Assembly (NCBI GenBank): GCA_032718475.1
Contig: JAUCBJ010007175.1
Span: forward strand, 60,290-124,289
Length of the DNA stretch: 64,000 bases
Direction: 5' to 3'
From: Nemertoderma westbladi
Taxonomy: Eukaryota; Animalia; Xenacoelomorpha
Under the pieces are notes generated by a model. It did not search any database. It was not told the DNA's origin and saw only the letters and a program-made list of their open reading frames with translations. The translations under genes and the position numbers were made by a program. The stretch's first letter is position 1. Every line of letters begins with the position of its first letter. Positions 22,808-62,351 of the stretch are shown piece by piece.

Positions 22808-23365
22808 TGTGACGGGATCCAAGGAGGATCCCGGTTTATCCGCGGTTATTATAAGTACGCGTCCCCGCCGTGTGAATGTGAAAAGAGTCTAAGAGTTCTG
22901 ATGTTATTGATTCTCCGATATATGTATAATGTAATGGGTATAGTATAAATGGATACAGTATAGATGGTTGAAGTACAAAGAGTTATTACGGTATGCACAG
23001 ATAAAATGGTGGTAGGTGAGGACGGTCTTAGAAGTCTCCGCTCTACCCTAGCTAACCGACTAATACAATGAGATAACTGATTACAGTAACATGGTACCTA
23101 ATAATATATATTGCACGGTTTGGCCGTCGTTACACCTAGCCGGTGCCTTCCCCCCATTGGCTAATATCCCTGTTGGCGCCCTTTGGAGTGTTTCCCCTCA
23201 CTCCTGCTATTCTCTCTCTGTCAGGGGTATGGCCCCTGACCCCTATTGTGCGTTTCTCCTTCCCACTTTGTTGGGGTGACACGAGGTTGGGTAATCAACC
23301 TCGTGTTCCCAATATTGCTTAATGGCTCACTTTATGGGGTGTTAGCGGAATTGGATAAGCTAACA
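22808..23365 (-). repeat. 3' LTR of the outer element (558 bp)
   Basis: TG...CA termini. Near-identical to 51787-52334, with about three substitutions and one 3-bp indel seen. Confidence 0.9.
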
Positions 23366-27264: not shown

Positions 27265-27342
27265 CCGCTCCCAGAAAATGGGATTTTCAGTCTATAAAAT
27301 ATAAAAATCACAGTTTCTAAAACCTAAAGATACTCTAAACAG

Positions 27343-36300: not shown

Positions 36301-36900
36301 GATTATCCCAAAGGCCTGGATGGTCATCCAGTACTCCACCGGTTTCTGGTTGAGGTCTCCTTCGGGCCACCACAGAAATCGTAGACTATCTCGATCCCTA
36401 TCTAACACCTTGACTTGTAAGAACATGCCTTCTATATCGGAGGCGAAAGCAATCGAATATTGTCTCAATCTTAAAAGAATTCCCAACAAAGATTGAAGCA
36501 AGTTGGGTCCGGGTAACAATTCAGAGTTAAGGGATTGACCCATGTAAAGAGCGGAGCCATCAAACACTACTCTCACTTCATGTGGCTTACCGGGTTTAGG
36601 AACGTAATGGTGAGTTAAGTAATACGTTCTTTCAGTCACAGGTGTTTCTTCCGGTACTCTCTCCGCGTATCCCTTACTAATAAATTTCTCCAGCTGTGTT
36701 TGATACATTGCTTTAGCTGAAGAATTAGCCGTAAGGCGTCGATGGAGTTGCGCGATTCTTTTTTCCGCCAAGGGTCTGTTATTGATGAACTTCGGTTCTC
36801 TCTTGCGGAAAGGTAGACCGACTTCATACCTACCTTGATCTTTGAGGAAACGTGTAGTTGTCTCTTGGATCTGCTTGGCCCTTTCCTCTTCCACTGACAA
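33316..36900 (-). CDS. pol: BEL/Pao Pol: reverse transcriptase, RNase H, integrase
   Basis: RVVFDGS, GPNLL, YMDD, LGLKWD, LHVFGDAS, NPADIASRG, HHCC (HSKLYH...CIPC), and integrase DDE (GVDLFGP / SDKGTNF / WERLIRSVK). Confidence 0.97.
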   Translation of the reverse strand: MSVEEERAKQIQETTTRFLKDQGRYEVGLPFRKREPKFINNRPLAEKRIAQLHRRLTANSSAKAMYQTQLEKFISKGYAERVPEETPVTERTYYLTHHYVPKPGKPHEVRVVFDGSALYMGQSLNSELLPGPNLLQSLLGILLRLRQYSIAFASDIEGMFLQVKVLDRDRDSLRFLWWPEGDLNQKPVEYWMTIQAFGIISSPSNACSVVRTTAEDNREAFSKEVIDNIKRDIYMDDNLKSLPSVEEAIEVAKGTVECLKRGGFRLTKFTSNSREFLESIPAEDRGAKDLDLIKDDLPETKTLGLKWDTERDILFFQLKQRDNPVRTKRICLSILSTYFDPLGFISPVILIARSLVQQMWLENHSWDDPLKGELLKKWMKWEDSLPAIEDFIISRSYFGHVLPTYSYQLHVFGDASDMGIGIVAYLRVETPDGIKVALVTSKALINNKLKVPRAELKAALYATAIGRNVTEQIDYPLEKTVYWTDALLVLEYITNEVCQFSVFVTNRVAIILSRTTMDQWRHCPGTINPADIASRGATPKELVNTPEWLGGPDFLYKEEEEWPPHLTTAEIRQAKGAEKVKPKTRASKSKLFKPAVDLSVLFTSGEDALDPKPTATTKEVLEIRDKDWKSGIPDIAQGLSPLLQRAIRHYSSWNRLCKAVTYLKRCFHHRYSGTKTHSDDAPSTSARVHVVKDLPQYKVSDRFLKEKISYQEHDETNKQMLRLLQCYEDPDKYFLLLRNPQMRLRDRFSSTMIDGLIRVGGRLTNAPLSFDTKFPILIRNLDIQIKMIVDVHSKLYHAGRERVLSEIRTRYYFYKPRRALNQVLRNCIPCRKAFSRPLTQREAELPRERVSFYEPPFTNTGVDLFGPIEVYRARTIVKRWCVIFVCMTCRAIHLDMVNDLSTNSFVLSLRRQIARFGTSNTMRSDKGTNFIGANNEIQAYVKDWNKRQVDDQLRITASSWTFNAADAPWWGGSWERLIRSVKTAFHFIVPCRAYLTDELLRTLMEEIAAYLNERPLMPVSSSPDSLEALTPAHFLLKKPVAMLPRSEITDGDEYCRRTWQLMQLLSRRFADHFEKHYLPTLQLRTKWFAQQENVSAGDMVLIVDPDLPRKRWQTGRIIETHISSDGLVRSVELVVMRRNFKKPGIVFETQQLNRPVGRLCLLERDRELSGNYGRQETLPTTTSLIQPTSRDSPT

Positions 36901-36923
36901 GGCTTTATCGTAGGAATTGGGCT

Positions 36924-39299
36924 CTACCGCCTCTTGCGTAAAGAATCGTACGGCGCATCTCGAGTCTTGGCATTACAACGCTCAATGACGTCATTTAACT
37001 CGTCGTTATAAGCTTCTCGTTCAGTTGGATAAAGAAGTTGACATAAGTTCACTTGGTTTTGCCAAGCCTCGTTTTCCTTAAGGAGGTCGATGGTATTCTC
37101 CTCATCAAAAAGCTGGTGCACGTCGTCGTTATCTGAGGAGTATGGGGTTCCCTCAGTTAAATCGTCTCCCTCACTAGTATCATCTTCCCATTCACTCACC
37201 TGGTAGACGCGCTCTTGCTCTTGCTGGGAAGGGCCAGTAAAGTACCAACCTACTCTAGTTCTTACCGCATAGGTCTGTAGTGGCTGCGGTTGAGCAGGCC
37301 GTTTCTCCAATGTCTCCAGCGCCTCATGCGCGTTTTGGCCGAGGAGTATTTGCACTCCAGGATAATCAGTCTGGAATCGAGGTATCTTAAGATGTTGGAT
37401 GCTCTCATCCTCGTCCCAATTATAAAGGTCTGCTTGAGTAGTAGCGAAGTTCTTTATAGCCACCAATTTCACTGACCTTATGCTATGTTCTCCTAGTTCG
37501 TCTTGTGGGGTGGACAACGCGCCTACATAATAATCAGCTGTTACTGTAGATTTCCAAACTTGTATAATGCCTGACATATTTAGCTTGGTTCGGAACTTAG
37601 GTTGTCCAGCGAAGATGTCTTCGGCTAGTTCTTTATCAATGAATGTTCCTGTGCTGCCGGAGTCCAGGAGGGCGTTCACTATATAGCTTTTCTGAGGTCC
37701 ATGGACCCGTAACTGGACTACAGGAAATTCTCGGATTCCTACATTGGAAGTTGGTGCTTTCCACGATGGTTGTCGCTCAGAAGTAGTTAGAGTGAAGTCG
37801 CTGTCTGTATCTTTTTCATATGTGAGTGCTCGATACACTGCGGTATTTATCATGTAACAGGATTCGTTTTCGTCGGAGAACTCGTCCGTATAGAATCCTT
37901 CCATCTCAGATTGATCAGTGTCGTTCACATCACTGAATTGGACATGTAGTTCGGAATCACTTACCTGATTAGGACTATTTCGATCGAATTCAGCGTGCAA
38001 CAAGATATGATGTTTCGCACCACACTTTGCACACCTTATGTCTGAGTAACAGGTTCGCCGTTGATGTCCTTGTCTGAGGCAATTATAACACAACCGCTTG
38101 TCCCACATGACTTCACGTCTCTCAGTTAATGATTTCTTTAGAAGTTCATCACACATATTCAAGCGATGGGTCCCATCACATAGCGCACATTTTGGTTTGA
38201 TGTTACTCGCCTTAATCTGAGTCACATTGTGCACACTCACCTTTTCTTCGGGCTTTCTCACCTGAATTCTCTTGGGAGACGTAGGAGGAGTTTTTCTTAC
38301 CTGTTCTCTCCTGTCATTTGTTCGAGACTTGAATTTACTTACCTGATCTTTAGGCATTTTATTTACGTAATAAGATCTCTCAGTGTCCTTCCCGCTATCT
38401 TCTCCTTGAGAAGTCTGGTTTTCGCCGTCGTCTGTATAACACACTGGTGTTACCTTTCTCCTAGAGACGGGTTTTTCACTTACCTTGTTTTCCGGTGTCT
38501 TCTCTCTGGACAGTTTCAGGAGCTGTAATTTCACTTCTCCATCTAGGAATGACATGAGATCAGCCATGGTAGGGTCTCGTCGTTGTTGTTCCATCATATA
38601 TAACACTTTCTTATCCCAGCGTGTACCTACTCCACCCTTCGGTAAAGTAGAAGCCACTGCTCTAATAACCATAGTGTTCTGATACTCATGAGACTTACCT
38701 AGCCAATCTAATTGTCTGCAGATCTCCTGGATCTCATCGGAAAACTCGATAATCCCGCTGCTAATAAACTTTCGGGGCGCTACCAACTTTGCATACAAAT
38801 ACCCAGCGATGTTATTCCTATTACCATACCTGATGTTTAGTGTATCCCAAACTTGTCTTAATCCGTCTGGATGTCCAATAAACTTTAACGCCATTAACTT
38901 GGGAGATCCTTCCAAGCACTCGATGAGGTATCTAAGTTTTTCTCCATTAGATAGTACAGAGTTCTGTATATTATCTTTGTAATATTCATTAAAGGGTAAC
39001 CATTTCATCTCATCTCCATTGAACTTGACGATCTCTCCCACCTTTACCGCTTGCCGGGCTTCGGTTCTAGCCATTTGACGCGTAAAACTTTCTTTGGCCA
39101 TCGTATTATTTAATATCGAGTTATCGGTATATAAATTTCTTAGATTATGATCAGTTCTATAGGGAATGTCATTATCAACAGGTCTATAATTACCCTTAAT
39201 AGGGTTCACTATAGGAGTTTCTACTTCGCTAGCAGTATATATGCGTGTAGGCTCCACACCTTGCGCATGAGATACTTCAGACCTAACAGGTTGACACAT
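36924..39299 (-). CDS. gag: BEL/Pao Gag plus aspartic protease
   Basis: KFNGD..W..F capsid-type motif and EKLRYL. Three knuckles (CALCDGTHRLNMC, CYNCLRQGHQRRTC, CAKCGAKHHILLH). Protease motif ALLDSGS. Pol follows in the -1 frame. Confidence 0.93.
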   Translation of the reverse strand: MCQPVRSEVSHAQGVEPTRIYTASEVETPIVNPIKGNYRPVDNDIPYRTDHNLRNLYTDNSILNNTMAKESFTRQMARTEARQAVKVGEIVKFNGDEMKWLPFNEYYKDNIQNSVLSNGEKLRYLIECLEGSPKLMALKFIGHPDGLRQVWDTLNIRYGNRNNIAGYLYAKLVAPRKFISSGIIEFSDEIQEICRQLDWLGKSHEYQNTMVIRAVASTLPKGGVGTRWDKKVLYMMEQQRRDPTMADLMSFLDGEVKLQLLKLSREKTPENKVSEKPVSRRKVTPVCYTDDGENQTSQGEDSGKDTERSYYVNKMPKDQVSKFKSRTNDRREQVRKTPPTSPKRIQVRKPEEKVSVHNVTQIKASNIKPKCALCDGTHRLNMCDELLKKSLTERREVMWDKRLCYNCLRQGHQRRTCYSDIRCAKCGAKHHILLHAEFDRNSPNQVSDSELHVQFSDVNDTDQSEMEGFYTDEFSDENESCYMINTAVYRALTYEKDTDSDFTLTTSERQPSWKAPTSNVGIREFPVVQLRVHGPQKSYIVNALLDSGSTGTFIDKELAEDIFAGQPKFRTKLNMSGIIQVWKSTVTADYYVGALSTPQDELGEHSIRSVKLVAIKNFATTQADLYNWDEDESIQHLKIPRFQTDYPGVQILLGQNAHEALETLEKRPAQPQPLQTYAVRTRVGWYFTGPSQQEQERVYQVSEWEDDTSEGDDLTEGTPYSSDNDDVHQLFDEENTIDLLKENEAWQNQVNLCQLLYPTEREAYNDELNDVIERCNAKTRDAPYDSLRKRR

Positions 39300-40532
39300 T
39301 GTTACCGAGGGTGGTGGTATACCCCTTTGAGTATTTACTAATTTCGCTTACGTCCTTCTGGGCTCCTCCCCGAGGCGCACCCACGAGGCGGACGCTTTTC
39401 CACTTCCCTTGGGGCCAGTCCGACTCCGTTTTTATCAGACCGGGCCGGAGGGTAGCCCGATGCTTCCTGGGTTCAATTTTCAATCCCCCGATCACACCGG
39501 CACAGCTCGTCGTGTGTAGCCGAACGGCGACTCAAAGTTCGCCTACTGTCAACTTACTGTGGCCTGACTGTACATTGAGCCAACTCAGAGAGTCAACCGG
39601 CGGGTGGACCAGTCGATAGCGATCGAGCATCAAGGTCGCCCTTGAGCCAAACCGACGGTCTTGTCCCATGTGGGCTTGCGCTACCCAACATGGAAGGAAT
39701 ATTGACCGTTTTCACCCGCCTCGCCGGCAGTATTGAGGGGAAGTCGGTTCCGCCAACAATACTGACTAGCTTAAAAGCTAAGAACAAGTCACCACTTACC
39801 AGTCACTGTACACGTGTACTCAATAGATGCTCACGAAATCAAGTACACAATGGTAAACACAAAATTGGACACATACCATGCACACACAGAAGACATAATC
39901 GGGAAAGACAAAATCGGTGACAAAATCAGAGGGGACAAAATTGTATCGACTAATAAAAGAGCCGAGAGTACCTTATTTTGCCGTCAGGGCAAAATAACTT
40001 TGTGTGCACAAAGTATGCTGGGGCGCAGTAAAGATATGGTCCTACTAATAACCGGCGGCGACTGAACCAACCGGCAAGGTTTCCCACACTCACTCGCAGT
40101 GGCCATACACGCACTCACGTATACCACGTACACACACAAACCACAGATTCCAGAGTATCATTCACTCGGACCACACTACAACACTAACCCCTCCTTGCAG
40201 CCGATATTCCGGGTGCCACCTCCATTCCAATAGTAGTACCAACAGAATCATCAGAAACCTGTCCATTCCGATGCAACACCTCCATTCCAATAGTGCTACC
40301 CTGGGAAAAGACACGTTTTGGCAACCGATCGGAGACAGTAAAGAGTCTGGTCAACTCATACATACCAAACATAGACCTACCACATAGACCACATAAACCA
40401 CAGATCACACTAAGCCACCACCCCTACCGTGTACAGGACTGGCAGTACGGCAACAGGCCGACTAGACGGTACCACGGCACCATGTTAATTCATGGTTCGC
40501 GAGACACGAGGGCCTTCAGTAACTCCCCTGCA

Positions 40533-42635
40533 CTATATAGAGTATTTAACGTGCCCCCAGACCCTCACGAGTCCGCCGCCGCCTGTTCGTGACACCCCTA
40601 TAGAGACCTCACCTCTTTGGGTATCGCGTTCTAGCGCGATACTTTGCTGCACTTCTTGCAACTTTAGCCTACTTTCCCTTACTGTGCCCTTGAATTGCTG
40701 GACAGTCTCCTGCATCTGCCCGAGCAGGAGATCCATCCCCCGCCGTCTCTCGTCCACCCATTCGACCGCCGAAGCGGGAGTCGCCAACGTTGTAGCGGGC
40801 GGACGAGGGACCACGGGCGACAAATCAGGAATATTTCGCTCGGGATCCAGGACCTGAACTGTCTCCTGGGCAGTTCTACTGGGCACAGGTAGCTTAGTGC
40901 TATGTAGAGGGAATTTAGAGTTAGCTTCAGGGAGCACAGGTGTGTCTATCACCGAAGGGGTGATTTCAAAAACAGGCCTAATTATTTCAGGCTCATCTAC
41001 TATAGTAGGGAGTCTTTCTATTTTAATTATTTGGTCTGTGGGTTCTGTACTACCTAAGTTGGTGTTATTTAGTTGCCTTCTAACAGCTGGAGGCAAATCA
41101 GGCAATTTCTGACGGTGGAATGTTCTTTTACGTCTGCTTAGACGAGATCTATTTCCTTTGCCTTCAGTATCGGTGGTATCGCCTTCCTCAGATGATGTAT
41201 ATCCCTGTCTTTTGGGAGTAGATCGATTCATCATCTGCATATTACTAGCTGTTAACTGTTTATTTATGCAGTCTTGATTCTCCTGAATATTTTCCAATTC
41301 TAATTGGGTGGTTTCTTCAGCCGCTTTCCGTTCTGCTTCTGCCACTGCCTCTGCCGCCTTTCTTTCCGCTTTTGCCGCTGCCATTGCCGCCTTTCTTTCT
41401 GCTTCTGCCGCTTTTGCCTCTGCCGCTGCCTCTGCTTCTGCAGCTACCACTGCTGCTTTCTTTCTGTCTTCTATACGTTTTTTCTTTACTTGTTCTTCTT
41501 GGACTCGTGTCAGGCGGAGTTGTTCATCAAATTTAGCCTGATTCGCAGCCCTCATTTCCACATCGATGGCATCCAACACACGCTGAGTTCCTTCGCTATT
41601 AGGGCTAAGTCCATCTAACCTTCTCCTCAACTCGTCATCACCTAAAAAACGTTGATAGTCTGACAGATAGATGTCAATGGCATCCCTCTTATGCGGTTTC
41701 TCTGCCGTCGCTTCACTTTCCACTTGGGAAAAAGTAGCGTCTGTTGATTCTCCATGGGTTGAGCGCTCCTCCAGCTGAGCTTTCCACTGAGCTGTTCCTT
41801 GAACCTGGCGACTCACCCGTTGAAACCAAGTCTTTACGGCAACTTGCAACGACGTGTCTTGTCTTCTTTTAGAAGCCTCTTCAAAGGCTGATAATATTAG
41901 CCTGATTCGCAGAATTCTTTCTCTAACTTGATAGAGCAGTTGTCCCTGCTCTTGAGGTCCTTGAGGTTGTTGTAACAGTTGTTTTTCTACTCGCTCCATA
42001 GAGCTGAAGAATCCCTGTGCGTATCCGGCTGCGGACCTCTTCCACACAGCTGGATCGATGGTTTCCTTGGCTACTCCCATCCGGTGTATGTCTTCCCAGG
42101 CAGCTTCTGATAAATCAAACGGGAGTCCGGGTCCGAGGAAGTTCCATTGCGACTCGACCATGGACTTCAGTTCTTCCCTTGTGTATCCCGCATAACTATC
42201 TTTAGTTGAGCGCTTACTTCTCGCCCAATCGATCTGGTGTTCTTCCACAGCGATCAATAACCTAGTGAGTACGGCTGCAGGAAGGATGAGAAGGGGATCC
42301 GAATAAACCGCATCCGTCATCCTTGCTCCGCGCTCGGGTGTCAGTTCTACAGTATCTTCACTACTGGAGCTGTCGGGCCACTGAGAAATAATTTCTTGGC
42401 TCACGGGTTGTTGCTGTTCCGCTGCTTCTTGGTCCCGCTTGACCTGAGCTCGAGTGCCTATGATAGACCTACGATGTTGGACCAGCCTAGGTTCTGTTAT
42501 TACTACAGGAGGGATGACCTTCCTCACAGTGGGAGGTGAACTGAACTTACGACTAGACGGTTCTACGCCTCTATCTGAGTCGCAGATAGTTACATCTAAT
42601 AAACTGTCTGACAGGTTCTGCTTAGTATCAGACAT
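40533..42635 (-). CDS. Upstream ORF0 of the inner element, 700 aa, coiled-coil/low-complexity, function unknown
   Basis: Long ATG-initiated ORF on the element's sense strand, with an AEAK/AERK-rich helical tract and no recognisable catalytic motif. Confidence 0.7.
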   Translation of the reverse strand: MSDTKQNLSDSLLDVTICDSDRGVEPSSRKFSSPPTVRKVIPPVVITEPRLVQHRRSIIGTRAQVKRDQEAAEQQQPVSQEIISQWPDSSSSEDTVELTPERGARMTDAVYSDPLLILPAAVLTRLLIAVEEHQIDWARSKRSTKDSYAGYTREELKSMVESQWNFLGPGLPFDLSEAAWEDIHRMGVAKETIDPAVWKRSAAGYAQGFFSSMERVEKQLLQQPQGPQEQGQLLYQVRERILRIRLILSAFEEASKRRQDTSLQVAVKTWFQRVSRQVQGTAQWKAQLEERSTHGESTDATFSQVESEATAEKPHKRDAIDIYLSDYQRFLGDDELRRRLDGLSPNSEGTQRVLDAIDVEMRAANQAKFDEQLRLTRVQEEQVKKKRIEDRKKAAVVAAEAEAAAEAKAAEAERKAAMAAAKAERKAAEAVAEAERKAAEETTQLELENIQENQDCINKQLTASNMQMMNRSTPKRQGYTSSEEGDTTDTEGKGNRSRLSRRKRTFHRQKLPDLPPAVRRQLNNTNLGSTEPTDQIIKIERLPTIVDEPEIIRPVFEITPSVIDTPVLPEANSKFPLHSTKLPVPSRTAQETVQVLDPERNIPDLSPVVPRPPATTLATPASAVEWVDERRRGMDLLLGQMQETVQQFKGTVRESRLKLQEVQQSIALERDTQRGEVSIGVSRTGGGGLVRVWGHVKYSI

Positions 42636-44078
42636 GTTTATGTGTACAGTTGAATGTCTACTGCTGTATTACAGTCTGAGCAAGTCTAGTAACTCAGTAT
42701 TAACTGCTAGCCTAGTAATTAATTACCTATACTGCTACTCAGTGTAGCGTGATATATATATTATATTAGAATACCGGTATGCTTATAGTATATATAACTA
42801 TATAAGTATTATTACAGACTAGGTTTATCACAGAATACCGGTATAATTTTAGCACAAATATATATAAATATATAATAGGCCTATCGGGAATACCGGTATA
42901 CAGCTTACAGTTTGTAGTATATATAATTCTGGACTAGAATTAATTACAAGTACCGGTATAATTTCAGCCTAAATTTATAGAAATAAAGATAATAGGCCTA
43001 TCGTAAATACCGGTATGCAGTTTACACTTATAGTGTATATATATAAGTATAATTACAAACTAGAATTAATTACAGAATACCGGTATGATTTCAACCTAAA
43101 ATTTATAGAAATAAATATAATAAGCCTATTGTAAATACCGGTATATCAATTATTTTAAATAACTGAATTTCTGAATTTTAAGGGTTACTTGGTTACCTTA
43201 ACTTACTTTATTGCCGTTATTTAAGCAGTAGTCCAACTGATATTGAGACCTAATTGTTGTATGGCAGGCCTACTATTTATAAATCGTTTGAGTTGATTTA
43301 TAATATATATATACCAGTTTAATGGGTTTTGTCAATGTTGAAATAAATGTTATTATTTCTGGGGAGTAATCACTACACAAAGCGGTGCGCTTTCAGTGAA
43401 GTGTTACTTATAGGACACTAAAACAAATAATGCTAATTTACCTAAGTTACTTAATACTACAAATTACGTACAATTCGGGTGAGATTACAATCTCTAAATA
43501 AACACAAAAATTTACAAAAACACAAAATACGAATTTTCAGGGTAATTTTACAAGATGTCTACAAACCAGCCTAACAAAGGGTTAGAATCTGGTTATTACA
43601 ACGGACAGGGTACTACGGTATTTGAAAATAATAAGTAGTAGTAAATACACTGCGTTGTCCAGATAGGAAAATACCACCGCCTGACGACCTATAGCCGTAT
43701 CGCTATAGGTACTACTTTATGTATCACGGAGTGTTCCTACCTAGAAGTTAATAGAGCTAATCGAACGTGCCTATCAACCACTTTACAACACAAATATAAT
43801 GCCTACACTAATTACTTTCGGAAAGCACTGTACACTAAACCCTAAATTAGGTACGAGTACTTGTACAACAGATAATCAGTAGTTAAATATACTTGAACAG
43901 CTAAAAGAACCACGGCATCTGCTGGAGTGACCGATGCACAAAATCATGGGGAATGAATGTTGCGAATAATCGCATAAACTCTGAATAATAAATATTACGC
44001 TACACGTACAAACCACTCAAACAAAATGCAGACCAAATACTGACAGACTACCATCAAGCCGAAACAAACTACGGTATA

Positions 44079-44560
44079 TGCAGACTCCGAAATGATTAGG
44101 TAGTATGCGTTCTAACCCAGTAGTACGACTTATTCTTTAGTTGGGGGTTTACCTTACAGCAATGGCTGCCCCTACTTCCTAACCGTTCTTTATCGGACAG
44201 ATGCTTTACACACACCGAAATCCGTTCAGACCTAATAACAGCCAGACAACTATCCAGCCTACAAATTATCTAAATAAATATTATACGCTACCTGTACAGA
44301 CTACACAAACAAAGTACAGACTAAACAATGGCAGAGTACTCTCAAGCCTAAATAAACTACAGGACATGCAGACTACGAAATGATTAGGTAGTATGCGTTC
44401 TAACCCAGTAGTACGACTTATTCTTTAGTTGGGGGTTTACCTTACAGCAATGGCTGCCCCTACTTCCTAACCGTTCTTTATCGGACAAGTGATCTACACA
44501 CACTGCAATCCGTTCAGACTTAACAGCAATCAGACAACAGCTCAGCCTACAAATTGTCTG
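44079..44560. repeat. Tandem duplication (period ~290 bp) in the 5' leader of the inner element
   Basis: The block GAAATGATTAGG...TTTATCGGACA (~110 bp) is identical at ~44089 and ~44377, with diverged flanks. Confidence 0.9.
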
Positions 44561-44912
44561 TACAATATGATCAGGCTTACACGCCTTCTGTTCAATACTG
44601 GCCTACAAATAAATAAAACTGACAGAAATAAGTAAGCTCCAAAAGAAACAAGGGGTGTACAGTCCCTAATCTCTTAAACAGCCTACCGGTATACCACAAT
44701 CAAATCGAATAATACTAATGTACTTATACGGGAAGTACCGGTTAGGACAGTTAGGCCTACGGACCTACAGAAGTACCTGTTCTGGCAGTTGGACCTACGG
44801 ACCTACGGCAGTACCGGTTCTGGCAGTTGGGCCTACTGACCTACAGATGTACCGTTCAGGTTTACCGGTTGACCGGTACTTTCAACTTTATTGCTTACTG
44901 CAATAAAGAAGC

Positions 44913-44924
44913 TATATCCGTTAT
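44913..44924 (-). promoter_or_regulatory. Non-tRNA primer-binding site of the inner element (ATAACGGATATA), complementary to its own LTR
   Basis: Abuts the 5' LTR and lacks TGG. Exact reverse complement of LTR segment 47798-47809 (= 26790-26801). Confidence 0.7.
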
Positions 44925-45406
44925 TGTTCGCGCTTTCAGACCTTTGGCAGTTTAACCCGCCAAATTAGGATGTCTTTTAGATAATAAATCACTTTTAGCC
45001 TATGACAAGTATTTGATTCACTACACTAGTCGAAACCAATCTGTGCGCGATCATTCACCCGCTGGATATACCCGGGAGATTGGGTTCGACGGCTTAATCT
45101 TATTGCTATGTAAGCCTAATGTATTATTCGACTGACAGTATTATATAATCTCTGACAATATTATTCACCTTCGGGAAATATTAACAGTTCCTTTAGGACG
45201 TGGCGCTCTATCTATATAAACAGAGTTATGACTTAAACTACTCACAACGATATGGCTTAGTTATAATTCACATATATGGCGCATTCTTTAGGAAATGCTT
45301 CGTTATCAGTCTCACTCATACACAATGCTGCACAATACTGCACACTAATCTGCCGATCTTCACTGATTTTAGTCACATATAAAAGGAACACGGACCGACT
45401 CATGTA

Positions 45407-47507
45407 CTAGGATCGGCATGCTGCATTGCAGCTGCATTTTTAAGAATGCTGTGCCGGCTTATCGACAAAATCGCACCGCCACAACTCCCTATCACCCATG
45501 ACATTTGCTAGATCATCCGCATCTTCAAGGCCAGTGTCCTTTAAGATGCGTCTCAAGAAAGTCATGGGTTGTCCACCATGCTTATTCACTCCATGAGGCT
45601 GCCAAAGTACAAGATTATGCACTGGCTGGTCCTCACGGCGAAAGCAATGTCCTGCAAAGCGGAGCCGATTTTGTTCTAGTGTCAAGCTTGGGGGAACCAA
45701 TGAGACACCTCCAATGTTATATAGTGTCTGGTTGGAGATGTGTGCATTGTACTTGACACAATGTACCCGGCGTAGCATTCTTGTGAATGTGCCATCCAGA
45801 GATTTGGTGTCCTCAGCAGTTAGAGCCCAGCATGGACTCCCGTAGAGGAGTACTGGAACTACTGCTGCTCTAAATAATCGGACCTTAAGTTTCCGATTAA
45901 TTCTAGGTGACTTCCAAATCCTAGAAAGCCTATTCAAGGCTGCCCATGCCTTTCCCTTACGTATTCGAAGGTCCTCACCTGACTTCCGGATCCATGATCC
46001 CAGGTAACAGAAGTCGTCCACATGCTCAAGCATACCATCCTTTGAGCTTATGCTCATCCGATCAGAGACTTGCTGAGGACTTTCAAAGTTAACTGTCAGA
46101 ATTTTGGTCTTTCTGGAGTTAATAAAAAGACCAACACTAGAAGCAGCATGTTCTAATGAGCTGAGGAGCCGCTGGGCTCCCTCTAATGATTCTGAGAGTA
46201 CTCCTAAGTCATCAGCAAAGTCTAGATCAGTTAGGTACTTGGCAGGATTTCCTCGACTTCTGGAGCCAGTAGGTGGAGTTATCATCACCCCATCATCATT
46301 ATGATGATCTAAGGACATGCGTAGAACATAGTCAACCACAATAATGAACAAGAATGGTGCAAGTGTGTCTCCTTGGAGGACGCCCCATAACACTTCAAAT
46401 GGTTCTGTGTCACCGTCAACAGTAGACACAAATGTTGTTGAACCATCGTATACTGATCTGATTGCTGCAATAATTTCATCAGGAATCCCATATAATGAAA
46501 GTATGCTGAACATACGTGAGCGAGAGACTGAATCAAAGGCCTTGAAGAAGTCAACAAAGATAACAGCCAGATGCCTGTCTTTCTTTTTTGATAACTCTTC
46601 AATTATCCTTCTAAGTGCCAAAATGGGCTCCATGGTCCCACGACCTTTACGGAACCCATTCTGATTTCCACGTAGCAGTCTCTCAATGGGATCCCTGATG
46701 CGATTTAATAGAATTCTATTGTATAGTTTTGCAGCAATCGAGATCAATGAGATTCCCCGAAAAGAACCATAGAGTGTTAGGTTGCCTTTCTTGGGAACTG
46801 GCACCAACTTATTTGTTTTCATTTCTTGTGGGACTCTTGTTGTACGGTACATGTCTACTATGATGGGATAGATGAGCTTTAAACACTCAGGTATTTTAAA
46901 GACCTCAGGGGGAACACCATCTACTCCACTGGCACGATTGGTCTTAATGCTCTTTGCAGCAGCATTCACTTCTGCAAAGGAGATATCGCCAATGGGAATA
47001 TCTGGGAGTACAGACTCAGACACTTTTACTTCTATAAAGTTATCAGGCAATACCCTGTCATTATTGAGGAGCTTTTCAAAGTGGGCTTTCCAACCATTGA
47101 GGCGATCGGCTGGTGATTCAGCCTTAACCTTGGTGGTTGGTTGGCTTTTCCGCCCAGTAAGCAGATTGATCGATTTCCATGCCTGGGATGATTGCCTGCT
47201 GTCGTCAGCATCATTGATGGCATCAACCTGTTGGTTTATTAGCTCCTGTAGATTAACAGAGTACTGCCTGTTCAGGGACCTAGATGCAGCTTTAACTGCA
47301 TTCTTGGCCGCTGTAGTCTGTTTGAGTCGGGACTCTTTCTGCGCCTTATGAAGGTCATTTCGGCACTTCTGAATTTTGTTGTCAGTCCAGGGGGCCCTTT
47401 TCCTGTTTCGAGGGTATACAGGAACTGTTTCTGCAGCTGCTAACTTAACTGCTTCTGTAAAGGCAGTATAGCCCTCACAGTGATCTGCCGCCTCAGAGGC
47501 AAGACTG
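45407..47507 (-). mobile_element. 5'-truncated non-LTR retrotransposon (RTE-like LINE), 2.1 kb
   Basis: 12-bp TSD CCGACTCATGTA (45395-45406 and 47508-47519). Contains an RT ORF and a very short 3' UTR. No endonuclease domain retained. Confidence 0.93.
45440..47050 (-). CDS. LINE reverse transcriptase domain (partial ORF)
   Basis: PKKGNL..FRGISL, QNGFRKGR, FVDFFKAFDSV, GVLQGDTLAPFLF, LDFADD, FCYLGS, and the RTE-type C-terminal RLRFAGHCFR. Confidence 0.95.
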   Translation of the reverse strand: MPDNFIEVKVSESVLPDIPIGDISFAEVNAAAKSIKTNRASGVDGVPPEVFKIPECLKLIYPIIVDMYRTTRVPQEMKTNKLVPVPKKGNLTLYGSFRGISLISIAAKLYNRILLNRIRDPIERLLRGNQNGFRKGRGTMEPILALRRIIEELSKKKDRHLAVIFVDFFKAFDSVSRSRMFSILSLYGIPDEIIAAIRSVYDGSTTFVSTVDGDTEPFEVLWGVLQGDTLAPFLFIIVVDYVLRMSLDHHNDDGVMITPPTGSRSRGNPAKYLTDLDFADDLGVLSESLEGAQRLLSSLEHAASSVGLFINSRKTKILTVNFESPQQVSDRMSISSKDGMLEHVDDFCYLGSWIRKSGEDLRIRKGKAWAALNRLSRIWKSPRINRKLKVRLFRAAVVPVLLYGSPCWALTAEDTKSLDGTFTRMLRRVHCVKYNAHISNQTLYNIGGVSLVPPSLTLEQNRLRFAGHCFRREDQPVHNLVLWQPHGVNKHGGQPMTFLRRILKDTGLEDADDLANVMGDRELWRCDFVDKPAQHS

Positions 47508-49743
47508 CCGACTCATGTAGGGTCTATCAAATAACATTAGATTCACTTCAAACCACTTTAACATAAGTCACAATCGTTATATATAACCTTTCTCTCTTAC
47601 CTTCGGTATATCAAGAATATTGGGTTTCGGGGTTATTTATCGTTATTCCAAATATAATAATTCATCAACCATATTATGAAGGACCGACAGTAAATAGCAG
47701 TATAACAATAGAATGTAAACACAGTGTTTGATTAGGTATGGTATGTTATGATTTGAGTTGAGTTGTTATGCAGTTTGCAGTCAGTGTTTGCAGTGAGATA
47801 ACGGATATATGTCCTTATAATTAAGCCTACTAGTGTTAGGCTAAAAACAGAACAGCACAAAATATTTCCAAGCCGTTCTCTCCTGGCTCAGAACAGAATG
47901 TAAACACTGCACATAAAGCATTACGTGATTTCTAGGAAATTTCTCTACAAGAGCCATAAAAATGCTCTGATTGGCTGACTGAACTGAGAGACGCCGTAGA
48001 ACAAAGAAAATCAACACGTATGAATATCAGCTGTTAACCGTCGTCATAGTAACTACTGTTCAAGAGTAGCTATCACCTTTTGCGTCACGAATTGCCATAG
48101 AATCATCAACTATGCCTTCCACAGTACACGTACGGAGGAAATAGCTCTTAGATCCTCTAAAAAACACCAATACAGTAATAATACGGTCTCTTACACTTAT
48201 TAAATCAACTACAGAGTATTTTAATGTAAAAGATAATAAAAATAACGGGGCAATTCAGCAAAGGCTTTTACATAGTCCTTCACGTATCGCGCGTAGGTTT
48301 ATATGAAATAAATTGGAGATGAGCTGTTGCAACTGTAATTAAAGGTGTAATATTATGGGTTTGTTCAGAAGGGTTTATATGTACCGATTTAGTGTTTCGA
48401 TTGCCTAGACTCGGCCTACTGGGTATATTGGGATTGTGTTTATTTTTGGTGTTATTTTCTTTCTGTCCCTGCCACGGTGTGGCCCTGCTACCAGCTAGCT
48501 GTGGACTAGCAGTCCCCTGTATGGCCGCGTGTGGTAGCGACTGTCCGCACGACCTGTTCTCGTCCAGGGAGTTCGATGTTCCTGCTCCTATTGGGGTATA
48601 TTGTCGATATTGTGATGGGGGAATGTCACCCTGTCCCCCCCCGGCAGGTATGTTTGGTACTGGGGTTGATGTTAATATATTGGGGCCCATACATCTATCT
48701 CCAATAACTCTCCCCTCCCCTGGATATATGTTATGTCCCTGTGTATTATAGTCATGCTGCTGTACCGATATAGGCCTACCCACTTCCTGCCTACCTACCG
48801 GTATGTACTCCGCGGCTTCCGGGTTTAATCCCGTTGTTCGCGCTACCCTATCGCCTACTCTACCTCTCCCAGCATGGCCTATAATAGTATGTGCAGTAAG
48901 GCCTACAGTATGTCCTGCAGTCTGCATGTGCCCTTTTGAACCGAAGTTTAATCTTCTCGAATCTCCCCGCGACTACCGCACTCTCGATCGGCAGCTATAT
49001 CCCGTCGGGAAGCTTCTCTTCGATCCCCTCTCCTGTTCTCGACTTTGTATTGGTACGTCCTGTACCCCTCTCTTGGCGTGCGGTGCGTTTCTCAGGGGCG
49101 ACGGCAATCTCCCGAAGTTCGACCCCACTGACTCCCTGACTCCATCTCTACTATCGACGGTCCGTTATCCGTCCTCGCACTCCTATCGTTCGTGGCGACA
49201 CTTTTTCTACTATCTCCTCTTCTTCTCTTTTCAGTGCAGTATTCCGGCTCGTGAGATCTCTCGTCGACCTCCCGGTTAAACTCCATTGTTCTTCTTCCCT
49301 CTTCTAATCGGGCTCGACGCTTCGTCTGCCCTCTCGCGACGTCAACCTGCCTCTCTCTGCTCGATCGCACGCCAATGGGGATACTCGCAATCCCCCTATT
49401 ATTCTCCATCGCCGGGTGTTGCGGTTTACCTAATTCGGCCCGCGCATTATCCGCCGAAGCCTGTGGGACACTCTCTGCCCCCCCCCCCCTCTCTCTACTA
49501 ATCTCTCACGGTGGGGTGTCCGTAGCCCCCCCCCCCCCCCCACCCGCCACTTATAACTTCACTATCTCTTACTACACTTCTGCGTCCCTCTTGTCGGACA
49601 TTCTCTACCTCCCCCCTCTCGCCACTAATCTTCCGTGGTGGGGCGCCCGTAGCCCCCCCCCACCCGCTACTTCTAACTTCACTACCTCCTACTACACCTC
49701 TACACCCCTCTTGTGGGGCATTCTCTCCCCCCCTCTCTCACCA

Positions 49744-51777: not shown

Positions 51778-51786
51778 TTCTAAGAC
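51778..51786 (-). promoter_or_regulatory. Non-tRNA primer-binding site of the outer element (GTCTTAGAA), complementary to its own LTR
   Basis: Abuts the 5' LTR and lacks TGG. Exact reverse complement of LTR segment 52004-52012 (= 23025-23033). Confidence 0.6.
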
Positions 51787-52334
51787 TGTGACGGGATCCA
51801 AGGAGGATCCCGGTTTATCCGCGGTTATTATAAGTACGCGTCCCCGCCGTGTGAATGTGAAAAGAGTCTAAGAGTTCTGATGTTATTGATTCTCCGATAT
51901 ATGTATAATGTAATGGGTATAGTATAAATGGATACAGTATAGATGGTTGAAGTACAAAGAGTTATTACGGTATGCACAGATAAAATGGTGGTAGGTGAGG
52001 ACGGTCTTAGAAGTCTCCGCTCTACCCTAGCTAACCGACTAATACAATGAGATAACTGATTACAGTAACATGGTACCTAATAATATATATTGCACGGTTT
52101 GGCCGTCGTTACACTACCTAGCCGGTGCCTTCCCCCCATTGGCTAATATCCCTGTTGGCGCCCTTTGGAGTGTTTCCCCTCACTCCTGTTATTCTCTCTC
52201 TGTCAGGGCTATGGCCCCTGACCCCTATTGTGCGTTTCTCCTTCCCACTTTGTTGGGGTGACACTAGGTTGGGTAATCAACCTCGTGTTCCCAATATTGC
52301 TTAATGGCTCACTTTATGGGGTGTTAGCGGAATT
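51787..52334 (-). repeat. 5' LTR of the outer element, missing its outermost 13 bp
   Basis: Matches 22808-23352, then breaks into AGTTAG(CGGA)n. On the - strand a TATATA is followed ~30 nt later by an Inr-like TCAGTT (~52055-52092). Confidence 0.9.
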
Positions 52335-52340
52335 AGTTAG

Positions 52341-52629
52341 CGGACGGACGGACGGACGGACGGACGGACGGACGGACGGACGGACGGACGGACGGACGGA
52401 CGGACGGACGGACGGACGGACGGACGGACGGACGGACGGACGGACGGACGGACGGACGGACGGACGGACGGACGGACGGACGGACGGACGGACGGACGGA
52501 CGGACGGACGGACGGACGGACGGACGGACGGACGGACGGACGGACGGACGGACGGACGGACGGACGGTCGGACGGACGGACGGACGGACGGACGGACGGA
52601 CGGACGGACGGACGGACGGACGGACGGAC
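52341..52629. repeat. (CGGA)n microsatellite, ~72 units
   Basis: Directly visible, with one interrupted unit near 52567. Confidence 0.99.
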
Positions 52630-55600
52630 CATCAAACACATAGATAGAGTTCTACAGTTACACCATCCATCAAACACATATAGAGATTATAAAGTTACAC
52701 CATCCATCAAACACATAGATAGAGTTCTACAGTTACACCTTCCATCAAACACATAGACAGAGTTCTACAGTTACACCATCCATCAAACAAATAGATAGAG
52801 ATTATAAAGTTACACCATCCATCAAACACATAGATAGAGTTCTACAGTTACACCTTCCATCAAACACATAGACAGAGTTCTACGGTTACACCATCCATCA
52901 AACACATAGATAGAGTTCTAAAGTTACACCATCCATCAAACACATAGATAGAGTTCTACAGTTACACCTTCCATCAAACACATAGATAGAGTTCTACAGT
53001 TACACCATCCATCAAACACATAGATAGAGATCTACAGTTACACCATCCATCAAACACATACAGTAAATAAAGTTCTACAGTTACACCATCCATCAAACAC
53101 ATACAGTAGATAGAGATATAAAGTTACACCATCCATCAAACACATAGATAGAGTTCTACAGTTACACCATCCATCAAACACATAGATAGAGATTATAAAG
53201 TTACACCATCCATCAAACACATAGATAGAGTTCTAAAGTTACACCATCCATCAAACACATAGATAGAGTTCTAAAGTTACACCATCCATCAAACACATAG
53301 ATAGAGTTCTACAGTTACACCATCCATCAAACACATAGATAGAGATTATAAAGTTACACCATCCATCAAACACATAGATAGAGTTCTAAAGTTACACCAT
53401 CCATCAAACACATAGATAGAGTTCTACAGTTACACCATCCATCAAACACATAGATAGAGTTCTAAAGTTACACCATCCATCAAACACATAGATAGAGTTC
53501 TACAGTTACACCATCCATCAAACACATAGATAGAGTTCTACAGTTACACCATCCATCAAACACATAGATAGAGTTCTACAGTTACACCATCCATCAAACA
53601 CATAGATAGAGTTCTAAAGTTACACCATCCATCAAACACATAGATAGAGTTCTACAGTTACACCATCCATCAAACACATAGATAGAGATTATAAAGTTAC
53701 ACCATCCATCAAACACATAGATAGAGTTCTAAAGTTACACCATCCATCAAACACATAGATAGAGTTCTACAGTTACACCATCCATCAAACACATAGATAG
53801 AGTTCTACAGTTACACCATCCATCAAACACATAGATAGAGATTATAAAGTTACACCATCCATCAAACACATAGATAGAGTTCTACAGTTACACCATCCAT
53901 CAAACACATACAGTAAATAAAGTTCTACAGTTACACCATCCATCAAACACATACAGTAGATAGAGATATAAAGTTACACCATCCATCAAACACATAGATA
54001 GAGTTCTACAGTTACACCATCCATCAAACACATAGATAGAGATTATAAAGTTACACCATCCATCAAACACATAGATAGAGTTCTACAGTTACACCATCCA
54101 TCAAACACATACAGTAAATAAAGTTCTACAGTTACACCATCCATCAAACACATACAGTAGATAGAGATATAAAGTTACACCATCCATCAAACACATAGAT
54201 AGAGATATAAAGTTACACCATCCATCAAACACATAGATAAAGTTCTACAGTTACACCATCCATCAAACACATACAGTAGATAGAGATTATAAAGTTACAC
54301 CATCCATCAAACACATAGATAGAGTTCTACAGTTACACCATCCATCAAACACATAGATAGAGATTATAAAGTTACACCATCCATCAAACACATAGATAGA
54401 GTTCTACAGTTACACCATCCATCAAACACATAGATAGAGATTATAAAGTTACACCATCCATCAAACACATAGATAGAGTTCTAAGTTACACCATCCATCA
54501 AACACATAGATAGAGTTTAAGACACCATCCATCAAACACATAGATAGAGTTCTACAGTTACACCATCCATCAAACACATAGATAGAGATTATAAAGTTAC
54601 ACCATCCATCAAACACATAGATAGAGTTCTACAGTTACACCATCCATCAAACACATAGATAGAGTTCTACAGTTACACCATCCATCAAACACATAGATAG
54701 AGATTATAAAGTTACACCATCCATCAAACACATAGATAGAGTTCTACAGTTACACCATCCATCAAACACATAGATAGAGTTCTACAGTTACACCATCCAT
54801 CAAACACATAGATAGAGTTCTACAGTTACACCATCCATCAAACACATAGATAGAGTTCTACAGTTACACCATCCATCAAACACATAGATAGAGTTCTACA
54901 GTTACACCATCCATCAAACACATAGATAGAGTTCTACAGTTACACCATCCATCAAACACATAGATAAAGTTCTACAGTTACACCATCCATCAAACACATA
55001 CGTATAGAGATATAAAGTTACACCATCCATCAAACACATAGATAGAGTTCTACAGTTACACCATCCATCAAACACATAGATAGAGATTATAAAGTTACAC
55101 CATCCATCAAACACATAGATAGAGTTCTAAAGTTACACCATCCATCAAACACATAGATAGAGTTCTAAAGTTACACCATCCATCAAACACATAGATAGAG
55201 TTCTACAGTTACACCATCCATCAAACACATAGATAGAGATTATAAAGTTACACCATCCATCAAACACATAGATAGAGTTCTACAGTTACACCATCCATCA
55301 AACACATAGATAGAGTTCTACAGTTACACCATCCATCAAACACATAGATAGAGTTCTACAGTTACACCATCCATCAAACACATAGATAGAGTTCTACAGT
55401 TACACCATCCATCAAACACATAGATAGAGTTCTAAAGTTACACCATCCATCAAACACATAGATAGAGTTCTAAAGTTACACCATCCATCAAACACATAGA
55501 TAGAGATTATAAAGTTACACCATCCATCAAACACATAGATAGAGTTCTAAAGTTACACCATCCATCAAACACATAGATAGAGTTCTACAGTTACACCATC

Positions 55601-58600
55601 CATCAAACACATAGATAGAGTTCTACAGTTACACCATCCATCAAACACATAGATAGAGATTATAAAGTTACACCATCCATCAAACACATAGATAGAGTTC
55701 TACAGTTACACCATCCATCAAACACATACAGTAATAAAGTTCTACAGTTACACCATCCATCAAACACATACAGTAGATAGAGATATAAAGTTACACCATC
55801 CATCAAACACATAGATAGAGTTCTACAGTTACACCATCCATCAAACACATAGATAGAGATTATAAAGTTACACCATCCATCAAACACATAGATAGAGTTC
55901 TACAGTTACACCATCCATCAAACACATAGATAAAGTTCTACAGTTACACCATCCATCAAACACATACAGTAGATAGAGATATAAAGTTACACCATCCATC
56001 AAACACATAGATAGAGATTATAAAGTTACACCATCCATCAAACACATAGATAGAGTTCTACAGTTACACCATCCATCAAACACATCAGTGATAGAGATAT
56101 AAAGTTACACCATCCATCAAACACATAGATAGAGTTCTACAGTTACACCATCCATCAAACACATAGATAGAGATTATAAAGTTACACCATCCATCAAACA
56201 CATAGATAGAGTTCTACAGTTACACCATCCATCAAACACATAGATAGAGATTATAAAGTTACACCATCCATCAAACACATAGATAGAGTTCTAAAGTTAC
56301 ACCATCCATCAAACACATAGATAGAGTTATAAAGTTACACCATCCATCAAACACATAGATAGAGTTCTACAGTTACACCATCCATCAAACACATAGATAG
56401 AGATTATAAAGTTACACCATCCATCAAACACATAGATAGAGTTCTAAAGTTACACCATCCATCAAACACATAGATAGAGTTCTACAGTTACACCATCCAT
56501 CAAACACATAGATAGAGTTCTACAGTTACACCATCCATCAAACACATAGATAGAGTTCTACAGTTACACCATCCATCAAACACATAGATAGAGTTCTAAA
56601 GTTACACCATCCATCAAACACATAGATAGAGTTCTACAGTTACACCATCCATCAAACACATAGATAGAGATTATAAAGTTACACCATCCATCAAACACAT
56701 AGATAGAGTTCTAAAGTTACACCATCCATCAAACACATAGATAGAGTTCTACAGTTACACCATCCATCAAACACATAGATAGAGTTCTACAGTTACACCA
56801 TCCATCAAACACATAGATAGAGATTATAAAGTTACACCATCCATCAAACACATAGATAGAGTTCTACAGTTACACCATCCATCAAACACATACAGTAAAT
56901 AAAGTTCTACAGTTACACCATCCATCAAACACATACAGTAGATAGAGATATAAAGTTACACCATCCATCAAACACATAGATAGAGATATAAAGTTACACC
57001 ATCCATCAAACACATAGATAGAGTTCTACAGTTACACCATCCATCAAACACATAGATAGAGATTATAAAGTTACACCATCCATCAAACACATAGATAGAG
57101 TTCTACAGTTACACCATCCATCAAACACATAGATAGAGTTCTACAGTTACACCATCCATCAAACACATAGATAGAGATATAAAGTTACACCATCCATCAA
57201 ACACATAGATAGAGTTCTACAGTTACACCATCCATCAAACACATAGATAGAGATTATAAAGTTACACCATCCATCAAACACATAGATAGAGTTCTACAGT
57301 TACACCATCCATCAAACACATACAGTAAATAAAGTTCTACAGTTACACCATCCATCAAACACATACAGTAGATAGAGATATAAAGTTACACCATCCATCA
57401 AACACATAGATAGAGATATAAAGTTACACCATCCATCAAACACATAGATAGAGTTCTACAGTTACACCATCCATCAAACACATACAGTAGATAGAGATAT
57501 AAAGTTACACCATCCATCAAACACATAGATAGAGATTATAAAGTTACACCATCCATCAAACACATAGATAGAGTTCTACAGTTACACCATCCATCAAACA
57601 CATAGATAGAGATTATAAAGTTACACCATCCATCAAACACATAGATAGAGTTCTACAGTTACACCATCCATCAAACACATAGATAGAGATATAAAGTTAC
57701 ACCATCCATCAAACACATAGATAGAGTTCTACAGTTACACCATCCATCAAACACATACTGATAGAGATTATAAAGTTACACCATCCATCAAACACATATA
57801 TAGAGATTATAAAGTTACACCATCCATCAAACACATAGATAGAGTTCTACAGTTACACCATCCATCAAACACATAGATAGAGATATAAAGTTACACCATC
57901 CATCAAACACATAGATAGAGATTATAAAGTTACACCATCCATCAAACACATAGATAGAGTTCTACAGTTACACCATCCATCAAACACATAGATAGAGATA
58001 TAAAGTTACACCATCCATCAAACACATAGATAAAGTTCTACAGTTACACCATCCATCAAACACATACAGTAGATAGAGATTATAAAGTTACACCATCCAT
58101 CAAACACATAGATAGAGTTCTACAGTTACACCATCCATCAAACACATATATAGAGATTATAAAGTTACACCATCCATCAAACACATAGATAGAGTTCTAC
58201 AGTTACACCATCCATCAAACACATAGATAGAGATTATAAAGTTACACCATCCATCAAACACATAGATAGAGTTCTACAGTTACACCATCCATCAAACACA
58301 TAGATAGAGATTATAAAGTTACACCATCCATCAAACACATAGATAAAGTTCTACAGTTACACCATCCATCAAACACATACAGTAGATAGAGATTATAAAG
58401 TTACACCATCCATCAAACACATAGATAGAGTTCTACAGTTACACCATCCATCAAACACATATATAGAGATTATAAAGTTACACCATCCATCAAACACATA
58501 GATAGAGTTCTACAGTTACACCATCCATCAAACACATAGATAGAGTTCTACAGTTACACCATCCATCAAACACATAGATAGAGATTATAAAGTTACACCA

Positions 58601-61482: not shown

Positions 61483-62134
61483 CACCACAACCACAACCAC
61501 AACCACAACCACAACCACAACCACAACCACAACCTCAACCACAACCACAACCTCAACCACAACCTCAACCACAACCACAACCACAACCTCAACCACAACC
61601 ACAACCACAACCACAACCACAACCACAACCACAACCACAACCACAACCTCAACCTCGACCACAACCACAACCACAACCTCAACCACAACCACAACCTCAA
61701 CCACAACCACAACGTCAACCACAACCACAACCACAACCACAACCACAACCACAACCACAACCACAACCTCAACCACAACCTCAACCACAACCTCAACCAC
61801 AACCACAACCACAACCACAACCTCAACCACAACCACAACCACAACCATCAACCACAACCACAACCACAACGTCAACCACAGCCACAACCACAACCACAAC
61901 CACAACCTCAACCACAACCACAACCACAACCACAACCACAACCACAACCACAACCACAACCACAACCACAACCTCAACCACAACCACAACCACAACCACA
62001 ACGTCAACCACAACCACAACCTCAACCACAACCTCAACCACAACCACAACCACAACCACAACCACAACCACAACCACAACCTCAACCACAACCACAACCA
62101 CAACCTCAACCACAACCTCAACCACAACCACAAC
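61483..62134. repeat. (ACAACC)n hexamer array with TCAACC variants
   Basis: Directly visible. Confidence 0.98.
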
Positions 62135-62351
62135 CCATCAAAAACGTAGAGTTGGAACAACCAAAATTGTGGGAGAGAGTTAAATTAATTGTTTTCATGT
62201 AATTGAAATAGTAACATGATTTTATTTAATGTATTTTATGATAAAATGATCTCGAGGGATGACAGGCTAGCAGGTAATTAATTATTGACTATTAGAAGCT
62301 GACCTACTGTACCCATAGCCCACACCCACACCCACACAAAGTTGCTGATAG

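Follow-up and report, generated by a model that had tools for sequence, protein, structure and literature searches.

In a 64,000-nucleotide (nt) stretch of the Nemertoderma westbladi genome (contig JAUCBJ010007175.1, forward-strand positions 60,290 to 124,289; hereafter the window), a retrotransposon of the BEL/Pao superfamily carries, directly after its 5' long terminal repeat (LTR), a primer-binding site (PBS) whose exact 12-nt complement lies within that same LTR. We propose that the element is self-primed in the manner of Tf1, with a cut piece of its own LTR RNA priming reverse transcription, and put the probability of this reading at roughly 0.78. The pairing is found with different letters in a second element of the window and in distant BEL relatives, so that PBS and LTR segment covary between families, and the sequence shared among copies of the window element's own family ends immediately behind the 12-mer.

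BEL/Pao replication is described as poorly understood and tRNA-primed [International Committee on Taxonomy of Viruses (ICTV) profile, PMC8742986]. According to the available text of the sources, Tf1 is an established case of self-priming, which has also been predicted for the Tf1/sushi group, Tcn1 and TAR copia elements (PMC6317226, PMC4600332, bioRxiv 2022.12.06.519325). The mechanism is known from these other retrotransposon groups; what is new here is a BEL/Pao variant of it. Literature searches covering few subscription journals found no paper on BEL/Pao self-priming. The accessible portions of PMC3601003, PMC6934838, PMC3118150 and PMC554778 do not report it, and those of the last two hold no passage on a PBS or tRNA.

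The primer-binding site and its complement in the LTR

On the sense (-) strand the 5' LTR ends in GCGAACA at 44925 and is followed without spacer by the PBS ATAACGGATATA (44924-44913; 12 nt, offset 0 from the LTR); TGG is absent from the first 30 nt after the LTR. The candidate self-primer TATATCCGTTAT, the exact complement of the PBS, occupies 47798-47809 (-) in the 5' LTR (LTR positions 464-475 of 1235) and recurs at 26790-26801 (-) in the 3' LTR, where 760 nt lie between the end of the 12-mer and the end of the unbroken LTR. The initial annotation had reported the PBS without TGG and both copies of its complement with the coordinates given here, and these hold, as does its statement that pairing stops exactly at the LTR edge: from offset -1 the best match is 8 nt and lies elsewhere.

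This arrangement resembles that of Tf1/Tf2, Tj1, Tosmo and other Tf1/sushi elements, Ty3/gypsy chromoviruses in which, in the available text, a PBS next to the LTR's CA end can pair with 11-12 nt of the element's own LTR and a tRNA site is missing (PMC7175516, PMC4600332, bioRxiv 2022.12.06.519325). The rule for Tf1-type elements asks for a PBS 0-5 nt from the LTR and an own-LTR complement of at least 10 nt; here the values are offset 0 and 12 nt. Because its pol is of BEL/Pao and not Ty3/gypsy type, the window element is not a member of the Tf1/sushi group. The TAR/Houba/Osr-1 Ty1/copia elements and Tcn1 of plants likewise carry a complement of at least 10 nt at 0-5 nt after the LTR, according to the accessible part of PMC6317226. 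They belong to other superfamilies and other hosts, and in their case as in ours self-priming is a prediction.

A match of at least 12 nt at offsets 0-3 arose in 13 of 20,000 dinucleotide shuffles of the LTR, and a 12-nt complement in the LTR exists for 3 of 17,660 internal positions, the PBS site included. The match could be a coincidence, the 12-mer being part of a conserved core promoter and the tract that follows it (see below) being low-complexity sequence at the start site. The 12-mer does overlap what we take to be Myb-like and GATA-like words; 2 of the 17,659 other internal positions have such a complement as well, and a scan of many windows would meet cases of this kind. Against coincidence, the match falls at offset 0, where a primer is needed, and the element has no other primer site. 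Since a 12-nt match is improbable locally but not decisive genome-wide, we place weight on the comparative data.

A second alternative accepts the pairing as a real RNA structure (for circularisation, packaging or protection of the PBS) and assigns priming to a host RNA (an atypical tRNA fragment, for instance) or to a tRNA-like RNA encoded elsewhere. A self-encoded tRNA-like primer is said to occur in a nematode BEL element, although we found no paper confirming it. Our search for tRNA genes covered only the window, and half-tRNA primers exist in Ty1/copia lineages, as the available text of PMC6317226 indicates. On the other side, the PBS lacks not only TGG but also, over the first 8 offsets, the anticodon-loop pattern of a half-tRNA primer (pyrimidine, three bases, A, purine); no tRNA gene was found in the window and no Rfam match within 25500-49000.

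In duplex folds the pairing may extend on the 5' side of the 12-mer, beyond a 2x3 loop, through 7 bp (one of them G-U) between 47812-47818 (-) and 44909-44903. At -19.4 kcal/mol this is the best site in the element (the next best reaches -18.2), and 12 of 300 shuffled PBS sequences attain the energy of the extended duplex; by itself the extension supports the pairing weakly. It competes with a hairpin directly after the PBS (44886-44908, -). The hairpin folds with 9 bp as the initial annotation stated, but the loop given there was quoted from the (+) strand and reads AGTAA on the sense strand. Local folding predicts that the PBS is mostly unpaired and that a stem in the unique 5' region of the LTR (U5) ends at the PBS edge.

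No spliced primer was found in the LTR of the BEL/Pao element. As separate observations, this LTR holds an intron-like piece downstream of the 12-mer (47600-47524; GTAAGA...TAG, 77 nt), and an acceptor-like TTTTAG (47846-47841), for which a donor may lie near 47924.

Pairing in the enclosing element and in distant relatives

The BEL/Pao element is nested inside a second LTR element with 558-bp LTRs (window 22808-52334), which has a PBS-LTR pair of its own. Its 5' LTR (51787-52334, -; 98.9% identical to 22808-23365, its first bases lost to a CGGA array) is followed at offset 0 by a 9-nt PBS position (51778-51786, -) without TGG. The complement of these 9 nt lies in the same LTR at 52004-52012 (-; also 23033-23025; LTR position 333), a match reached in 5 of 500 controls. 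Long extra pairing is again present on the 5' side (-30.4 kcal/mol), and the predicted primer-PBS pair probability is 0.75-0.9 in the natural contiguous stretch. TATATA and an initiator-like TCAGTT lie 77 and 47 nt upstream of the primer segment, which makes it likely that the transcript includes this segment. Testing the two elements against each other gave matches of only 5 and 7 nt; the two pairs are thus unrelated, which speaks against coincidence in the window element.

Scans for further BEL loci gave 1 (in viral contigs, without LTR context), 67 and 23. The last 23 (L069-L091) lie inside prokaryote genome records and are presumably animal host DNA in bins. The first set comprised 10 loci with a repeat end inside the contig, and the 7 of these that end in CA were counted; L050, L063 and L064 were left out of the count, as the repeat stopped before the CA end (L050 later proved to be of TGG type). 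The same rule, applied later to the second set, gave 7 loci with an internal repeat end, from which L079 and L084 were dropped as non-LTR repeats.

Of the 7 loci counted in the first set, 5 show own-LTR pairing of 11-15 nt that spans a GT-AG junction and was equalled in 0-1 of 200 controls, and the other 2 carry TGG; non-self PBS-LTR pairs in this set reached 11 nt in 0 of 110 cases. Four of the five loci in the second set also pair with their own LTR, the remaining one, L081, carrying TGG. The matches in L070 (11 nt, spliced), L073 (14 nt, spliced; its repeat ends in AA) and L087 (11 nt, contiguous) were each equalled in 0 of 100 controls, and that in L075 (11 nt; no shuffle control) depends on a 697-nt intron and appeared only once the 400-nt limit on introns had been lifted. 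Altogether, 9 of the 12 relatives with a fixed LTR end are self-pairing (11-15 nt) and 3 have TGG. In eight of the nine (L012, L017, L041, L056, L068, L070, L073 and L075) the PBS pairs across the splice joint that forms when a GT-AG intron is removed from the locus's own LTR. These loci share with the window element the superfamily, the lack of TGG and the own-LTR match; they differ in that their match exists only after intron removal, whereas that of the window element is contiguous.

A blind CA-anchored scan was positive at 10 of 44 loci, but also in 248 of 1,892 cross pairs. Given so many cross-pair matches, scan matches without a fixed LTR end (L015, L024, L030, L034, L042, L044, L053, L055 and L078) are weaker. 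Matches in L007, L018, L021, L029, L071 and L085 were put aside as likely chance or local hairpins.

On an unrooted tree from a quick search, with 21 typed rows, PBS type changes once (support 89) and the window BEL/Pao element falls on the self-pairing side. In the sister pairs L034/L042 (support 98) and L070/L087 (97) both sides of the pairing change together, and in both pairs a contiguous primer is sister to a spliced one. An earlier tree, for which L029, L039 and L057 had been given loose tRNA labels, showed no clustering.

The initial annotation had read the window element as one of a self-primed BEL lineage and had proposed covariation of PBS and LTR segment as a check. At the level of families the two do covary, and the enclosing element and the nine relatives, which pair with other letters, support that reading. 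A fixed host RNA pool would not allow the PBS to change freely between families while always matching its own LTR. Neither a host primer nor chance explains this combination of free letter change and kept pairing; we consider a host primer improbable and chance, which would also have to accommodate nine self-pairing relatives of twelve against 0 of 110 non-self pairs, more improbable still.

The copy-variable tract and the proposed mechanism

Copies of the window element's family were examined in assembled contigs of public DNA runs. Five runs carry the stretch, with no RNA run found among them; 47730-47880 was compared in four (X1-X4) from three studies, while the fifth, X5, which may be DNA, covers the site thinly; depth is summed contig depth and not copy number. 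A 51-nt block common to the copies (47796-47846, -), delimited by a depth plateau and contig ends, comprises the acceptor-like TTTTAG, a small hairpin, TATAAGG and the 12-mer. Summed depth is 1e5-5.7e5 over 47796-47849 in X1-X3, 0-5e3 below 47796, and zero at 47766-47783 in X1, X3 and X4. The common sequence thus ends 1-2 nt behind the 12-mer, and 9 of the 32 pieces listed have an end at 47796-47799 and 2 at 47792.

Directly 3' of the 12-mer lies a copy-variable, G-poor tract of short repeats that start with C (47749-47797, -). Among 70-nt windows of the LTR it is both the most repetitive (repeat score reached in 0-1 of 1000 shuffles) and the lowest in G. Four joints have their departure point 0-3 nt past the 12-mer and their return at 47749-47758; in sense orientation they show the primer followed by deeper layers of the tract, in two cases with one differing 5-nt unit in front. 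A fifth joint departs at 47791 and rejoins at 47707, and one X4 contig has head-to-tail repeats of its own at the tract start. A hot spot that is fixed at one end and ragged at the other would be the expected mark of a strand-transfer junction.

Under Tf1-like self-priming, transcription would start upstream of the 12-mer, and the 12-nt LTR segment, supplied by either the 5' or the 3' LTR copy, would pair with the PBS adjoining the 5' LTR. The element's RNase H would cut between 47798 and 47797, as that of Tf1 does after base 11. Reverse transcriptase would copy the 760-nt remainder of the LTR up to the cut 5' end, and the cDNA would jump to the 3' LTR at the cut, imprecise jumps adding the short units of the copy-variable tract. 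Both LTRs would inherit the new junction, which would make the tract identical in the two LTRs of one copy; in the window copy it is identical.

The available text of the respective sources places the Tf1 cut between bases 11 and 12 (PMC7175516), has Tf1 reverse transcriptase adding non-templated bases (PMC3185545) and describes, for human immunodeficiency virus type 1, errors that gather at the template 5' end in minus-strand transfer, with the cap copied as G (PMC12172438). Because a copied cap leaves G, units that start with C and are poor in G agree better with a cut 5' end than with a capped start, and they would suit one at 47797, where a Tf1-type cut would fall.

Self-priming could also proceed from the 3' LTR copy alone, with transcription starting just behind the 12-mer; the 12-mer would then lie at the end of the unique 3' region near the RNA 3' end, the repeat region (R) would be of about zero length and the jump would be end to end. 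Such a start suits the position of TATAAGG, 12 nt ahead of the 12-mer, and of the initiator-like motif directly following it; units ending in A could be poly(A) remnants, and end-to-end joining agrees with the prefix duplications that follow the primer in L034 and L087. Yet only 23-25 nt separate TATA from the junction, whereas the usual TATA-to-start spacing is 28-32 nt, and TATAAGG can be accounted for as RNA pairing with the leader. Moreover, the tract is G-poor with units starting in C, whereas cap copying leaves G, and the enclosing element has its TATA and initiator on the upstream side of the primer. We therefore regard this route as unlikely, although less so than a host primer.

Several points count against Tf1-like self-priming with an upstream start. 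The start site, cut, priming and jump are inferred from the DNA. TATAAGG (47819-47813) together with an initiator-like TCACTG (47796-47791) could set the start just 3' of the 12-mer. Of the Tf1 'pretzel', the two flanking duplexes could not be clearly identified: for the leader and for the U5 end, the best-pairing partners fell more than 300 nt away from the primer, and 1, 8 and 1 of 20 shuffles outscored them. The window element sits on a long branch (2.06) and hence has no close relatives among those compared, and its own family showed no compensatory change. Nor is the tract general: of the 13 spliced-primer relatives the remaining 11 do not have it, and the sequence downstream of the enclosing element's primer is G-poor but not repeat-rich (935 and 83 of 1000 shuffles). 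In the run comparison, contig data under-list differences near aligned ends, which makes the absence of substitutions inside the 51-nt block a weak point; X1 and X2 are one sample, possibly the source of the window; and the joints are silent on whether tract units are gained or lost, the direction being inferred.

Among the relatives, the tract behind the primer is repeat-rich in L034, L075 and L087 (8-nt prefix repeat) and weakly so in L024. Tandem repeats stand directly behind the predicted primer at L034:122-180, L087:6301-6335 and L075:46-123, and an indel 6 nt past the primer distinguishes the two LTR copies of L034. That such a tract marks intron-less primers only is ruled out by L075.

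The proposed mechanism departs from that of Tf1 in several respects. According to the accessible text on Tf1, the opening 11 nt of its RNA serve as primer, and LTR sequence 3' of these takes part in two flanking duplexes. The window element has its extra pairing on the 5' side of the primer, a distance of 760 nt from primer to PBS, and the copy-variable tract behind the primer.

If the element is self-primed, BEL/Pao becomes the third LTR superfamily in which the mechanism arose, and one of its branches uses it commonly. BEL elements without a detectable PBS would be explained, and PBS-based annotation can miss such elements. The lineage might also no longer depend on the supply of tRNAs or be open to silencing by fragments of them. 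From the scar behind the primer, the cut and the strand-transfer point could be located with DNA alone, and the scar predicts an exact RNA 5' end at 47797. A bolder scenario, which we advance tentatively and would sooner bet against than for, is that a large marine BEL/Pao lineage swapped tRNA priming for self-priming and has switched between spliced and contiguous primers, and that in the window element's family the cDNA jump at the cut is imprecise enough for every round to write a new 4-8-nt unit directly behind the primer. The LTR would then be an ordered tape with the newest unit first, and the genealogy of copies could be read from LTR units.

Structure of the nested elements and their surroundings

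The BEL/Pao element (26030-48272, -) measures 22,243 bp, or 20,130 bp without a long interspersed nuclear element (LINE) and its target-site duplication (TSD). Its LTRs have TG...CA ends, and a 5-bp TSD, GACTA, is present on both flanks. The 3' LTR (26030-27264, -; 1235 bp) is unbroken and adjoins a polypurine tract (PPT), GGGAGCGG (27265-27272, -). The 5' LTR (44925-48272, -) is broken by the LINE, its two parts of 765 and 482 bp matching the 3' LTR. The two LTRs differ by 1 nt; the element is young.

The gag-protease open reading frame (ORF; 36924-39347, -) encodes DUF1759, three Cys/His motifs and LLDSG, and the pol ORF (33316-36972, -) encodes a reverse transcriptase (YMDD), an RNase H region, an integrase and DUF5641. 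Pfam families in these proteins are PF03564, PF05380, PF17921 and PF18701, with Peptidase_A17 among the matches. The best relatives are 37-39% identical over pol, and PF05380 and PF18701 are present in all 120 relatives listed. The element thus shows the features of the BEL/Pao lineage: the order Gag, protease, reverse transcriptase, RNase H and integrase, BEL-specific families, BEL best matches, TG...CA LTRs, a short TSD and a PPT. Indeed, the three Cys/His motifs of Gag, the order of the enzymes, DUF1759, Peptidase_A17, DUF5641, the LTR ends and the PPT are those of Belpaoviridae, genus Semotivirus.

Three extra frames flank gag-pol: a 700-aa ORF upstream of gag (40533-42635, -), a 1,034-aa ORF after pol (28566-31670, -) without a strong hydrophobic stretch, and a 435-aa frame (27343-28650, -) with zinc-knuckle-like motifs (zf-CCHC_3 E 0.0097, below the cut-off). 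Searches found no relatives of the 700-aa and 1,034-aa ORFs, Pfam gave nothing above its cut-off for the extra ORFs, and none of the three frames is envelope-like by hydrophobicity. These frames without relatives bring the element to 20 kb, twice the ICTV size range. Belpaoviridae as defined there have an 18-nt PBS for tRNA-Arg or -Gly, a length of 4.2-10 kb and one to three genes (PMC8742986), whereas the window element lacks a tRNA site, measures 20,130 bp minus the LINE and has extra ORFs on both sides of gag-pol. Because it departs from the profile in two characters, tRNA site and size, we file it by protein lineage only, as a variant.

The LINE (45407-47507, -) is a 5'-truncated non-LTR insert of 2,101 bp with an RVT_1 match and a 12-bp TSD; its relatives are about 1,000 aa long and include an endonuclease. 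In the window copy it separates the 12-mer of the 5' LTR from the PBS, and the LINE-free site was found joined in three public runs. The same LINE family inserted a second time at about 28502-28569, where a short 3' end with a GTA-repeat tail stands between the 435-aa frame and the 1,034-aa ORF. The long 5' leader contains a 286-bp tandem duplication (87%) and a 128-bp AT-rich repeat, at 43987-44559 and 42769-43145.

In the enclosing element, gag-like frames match a BEL polyprotein (E 8e-9) and no pol was found. Its 3' LTR (22808-23365, -) is preceded by the PPT GGGGGGGAG. Satellite arrays flank the nested elements at 2050-21207, 52341-52629, 52629-61474 and 61484-62135, with units of 30, 4, 38/77 and 6 bp.

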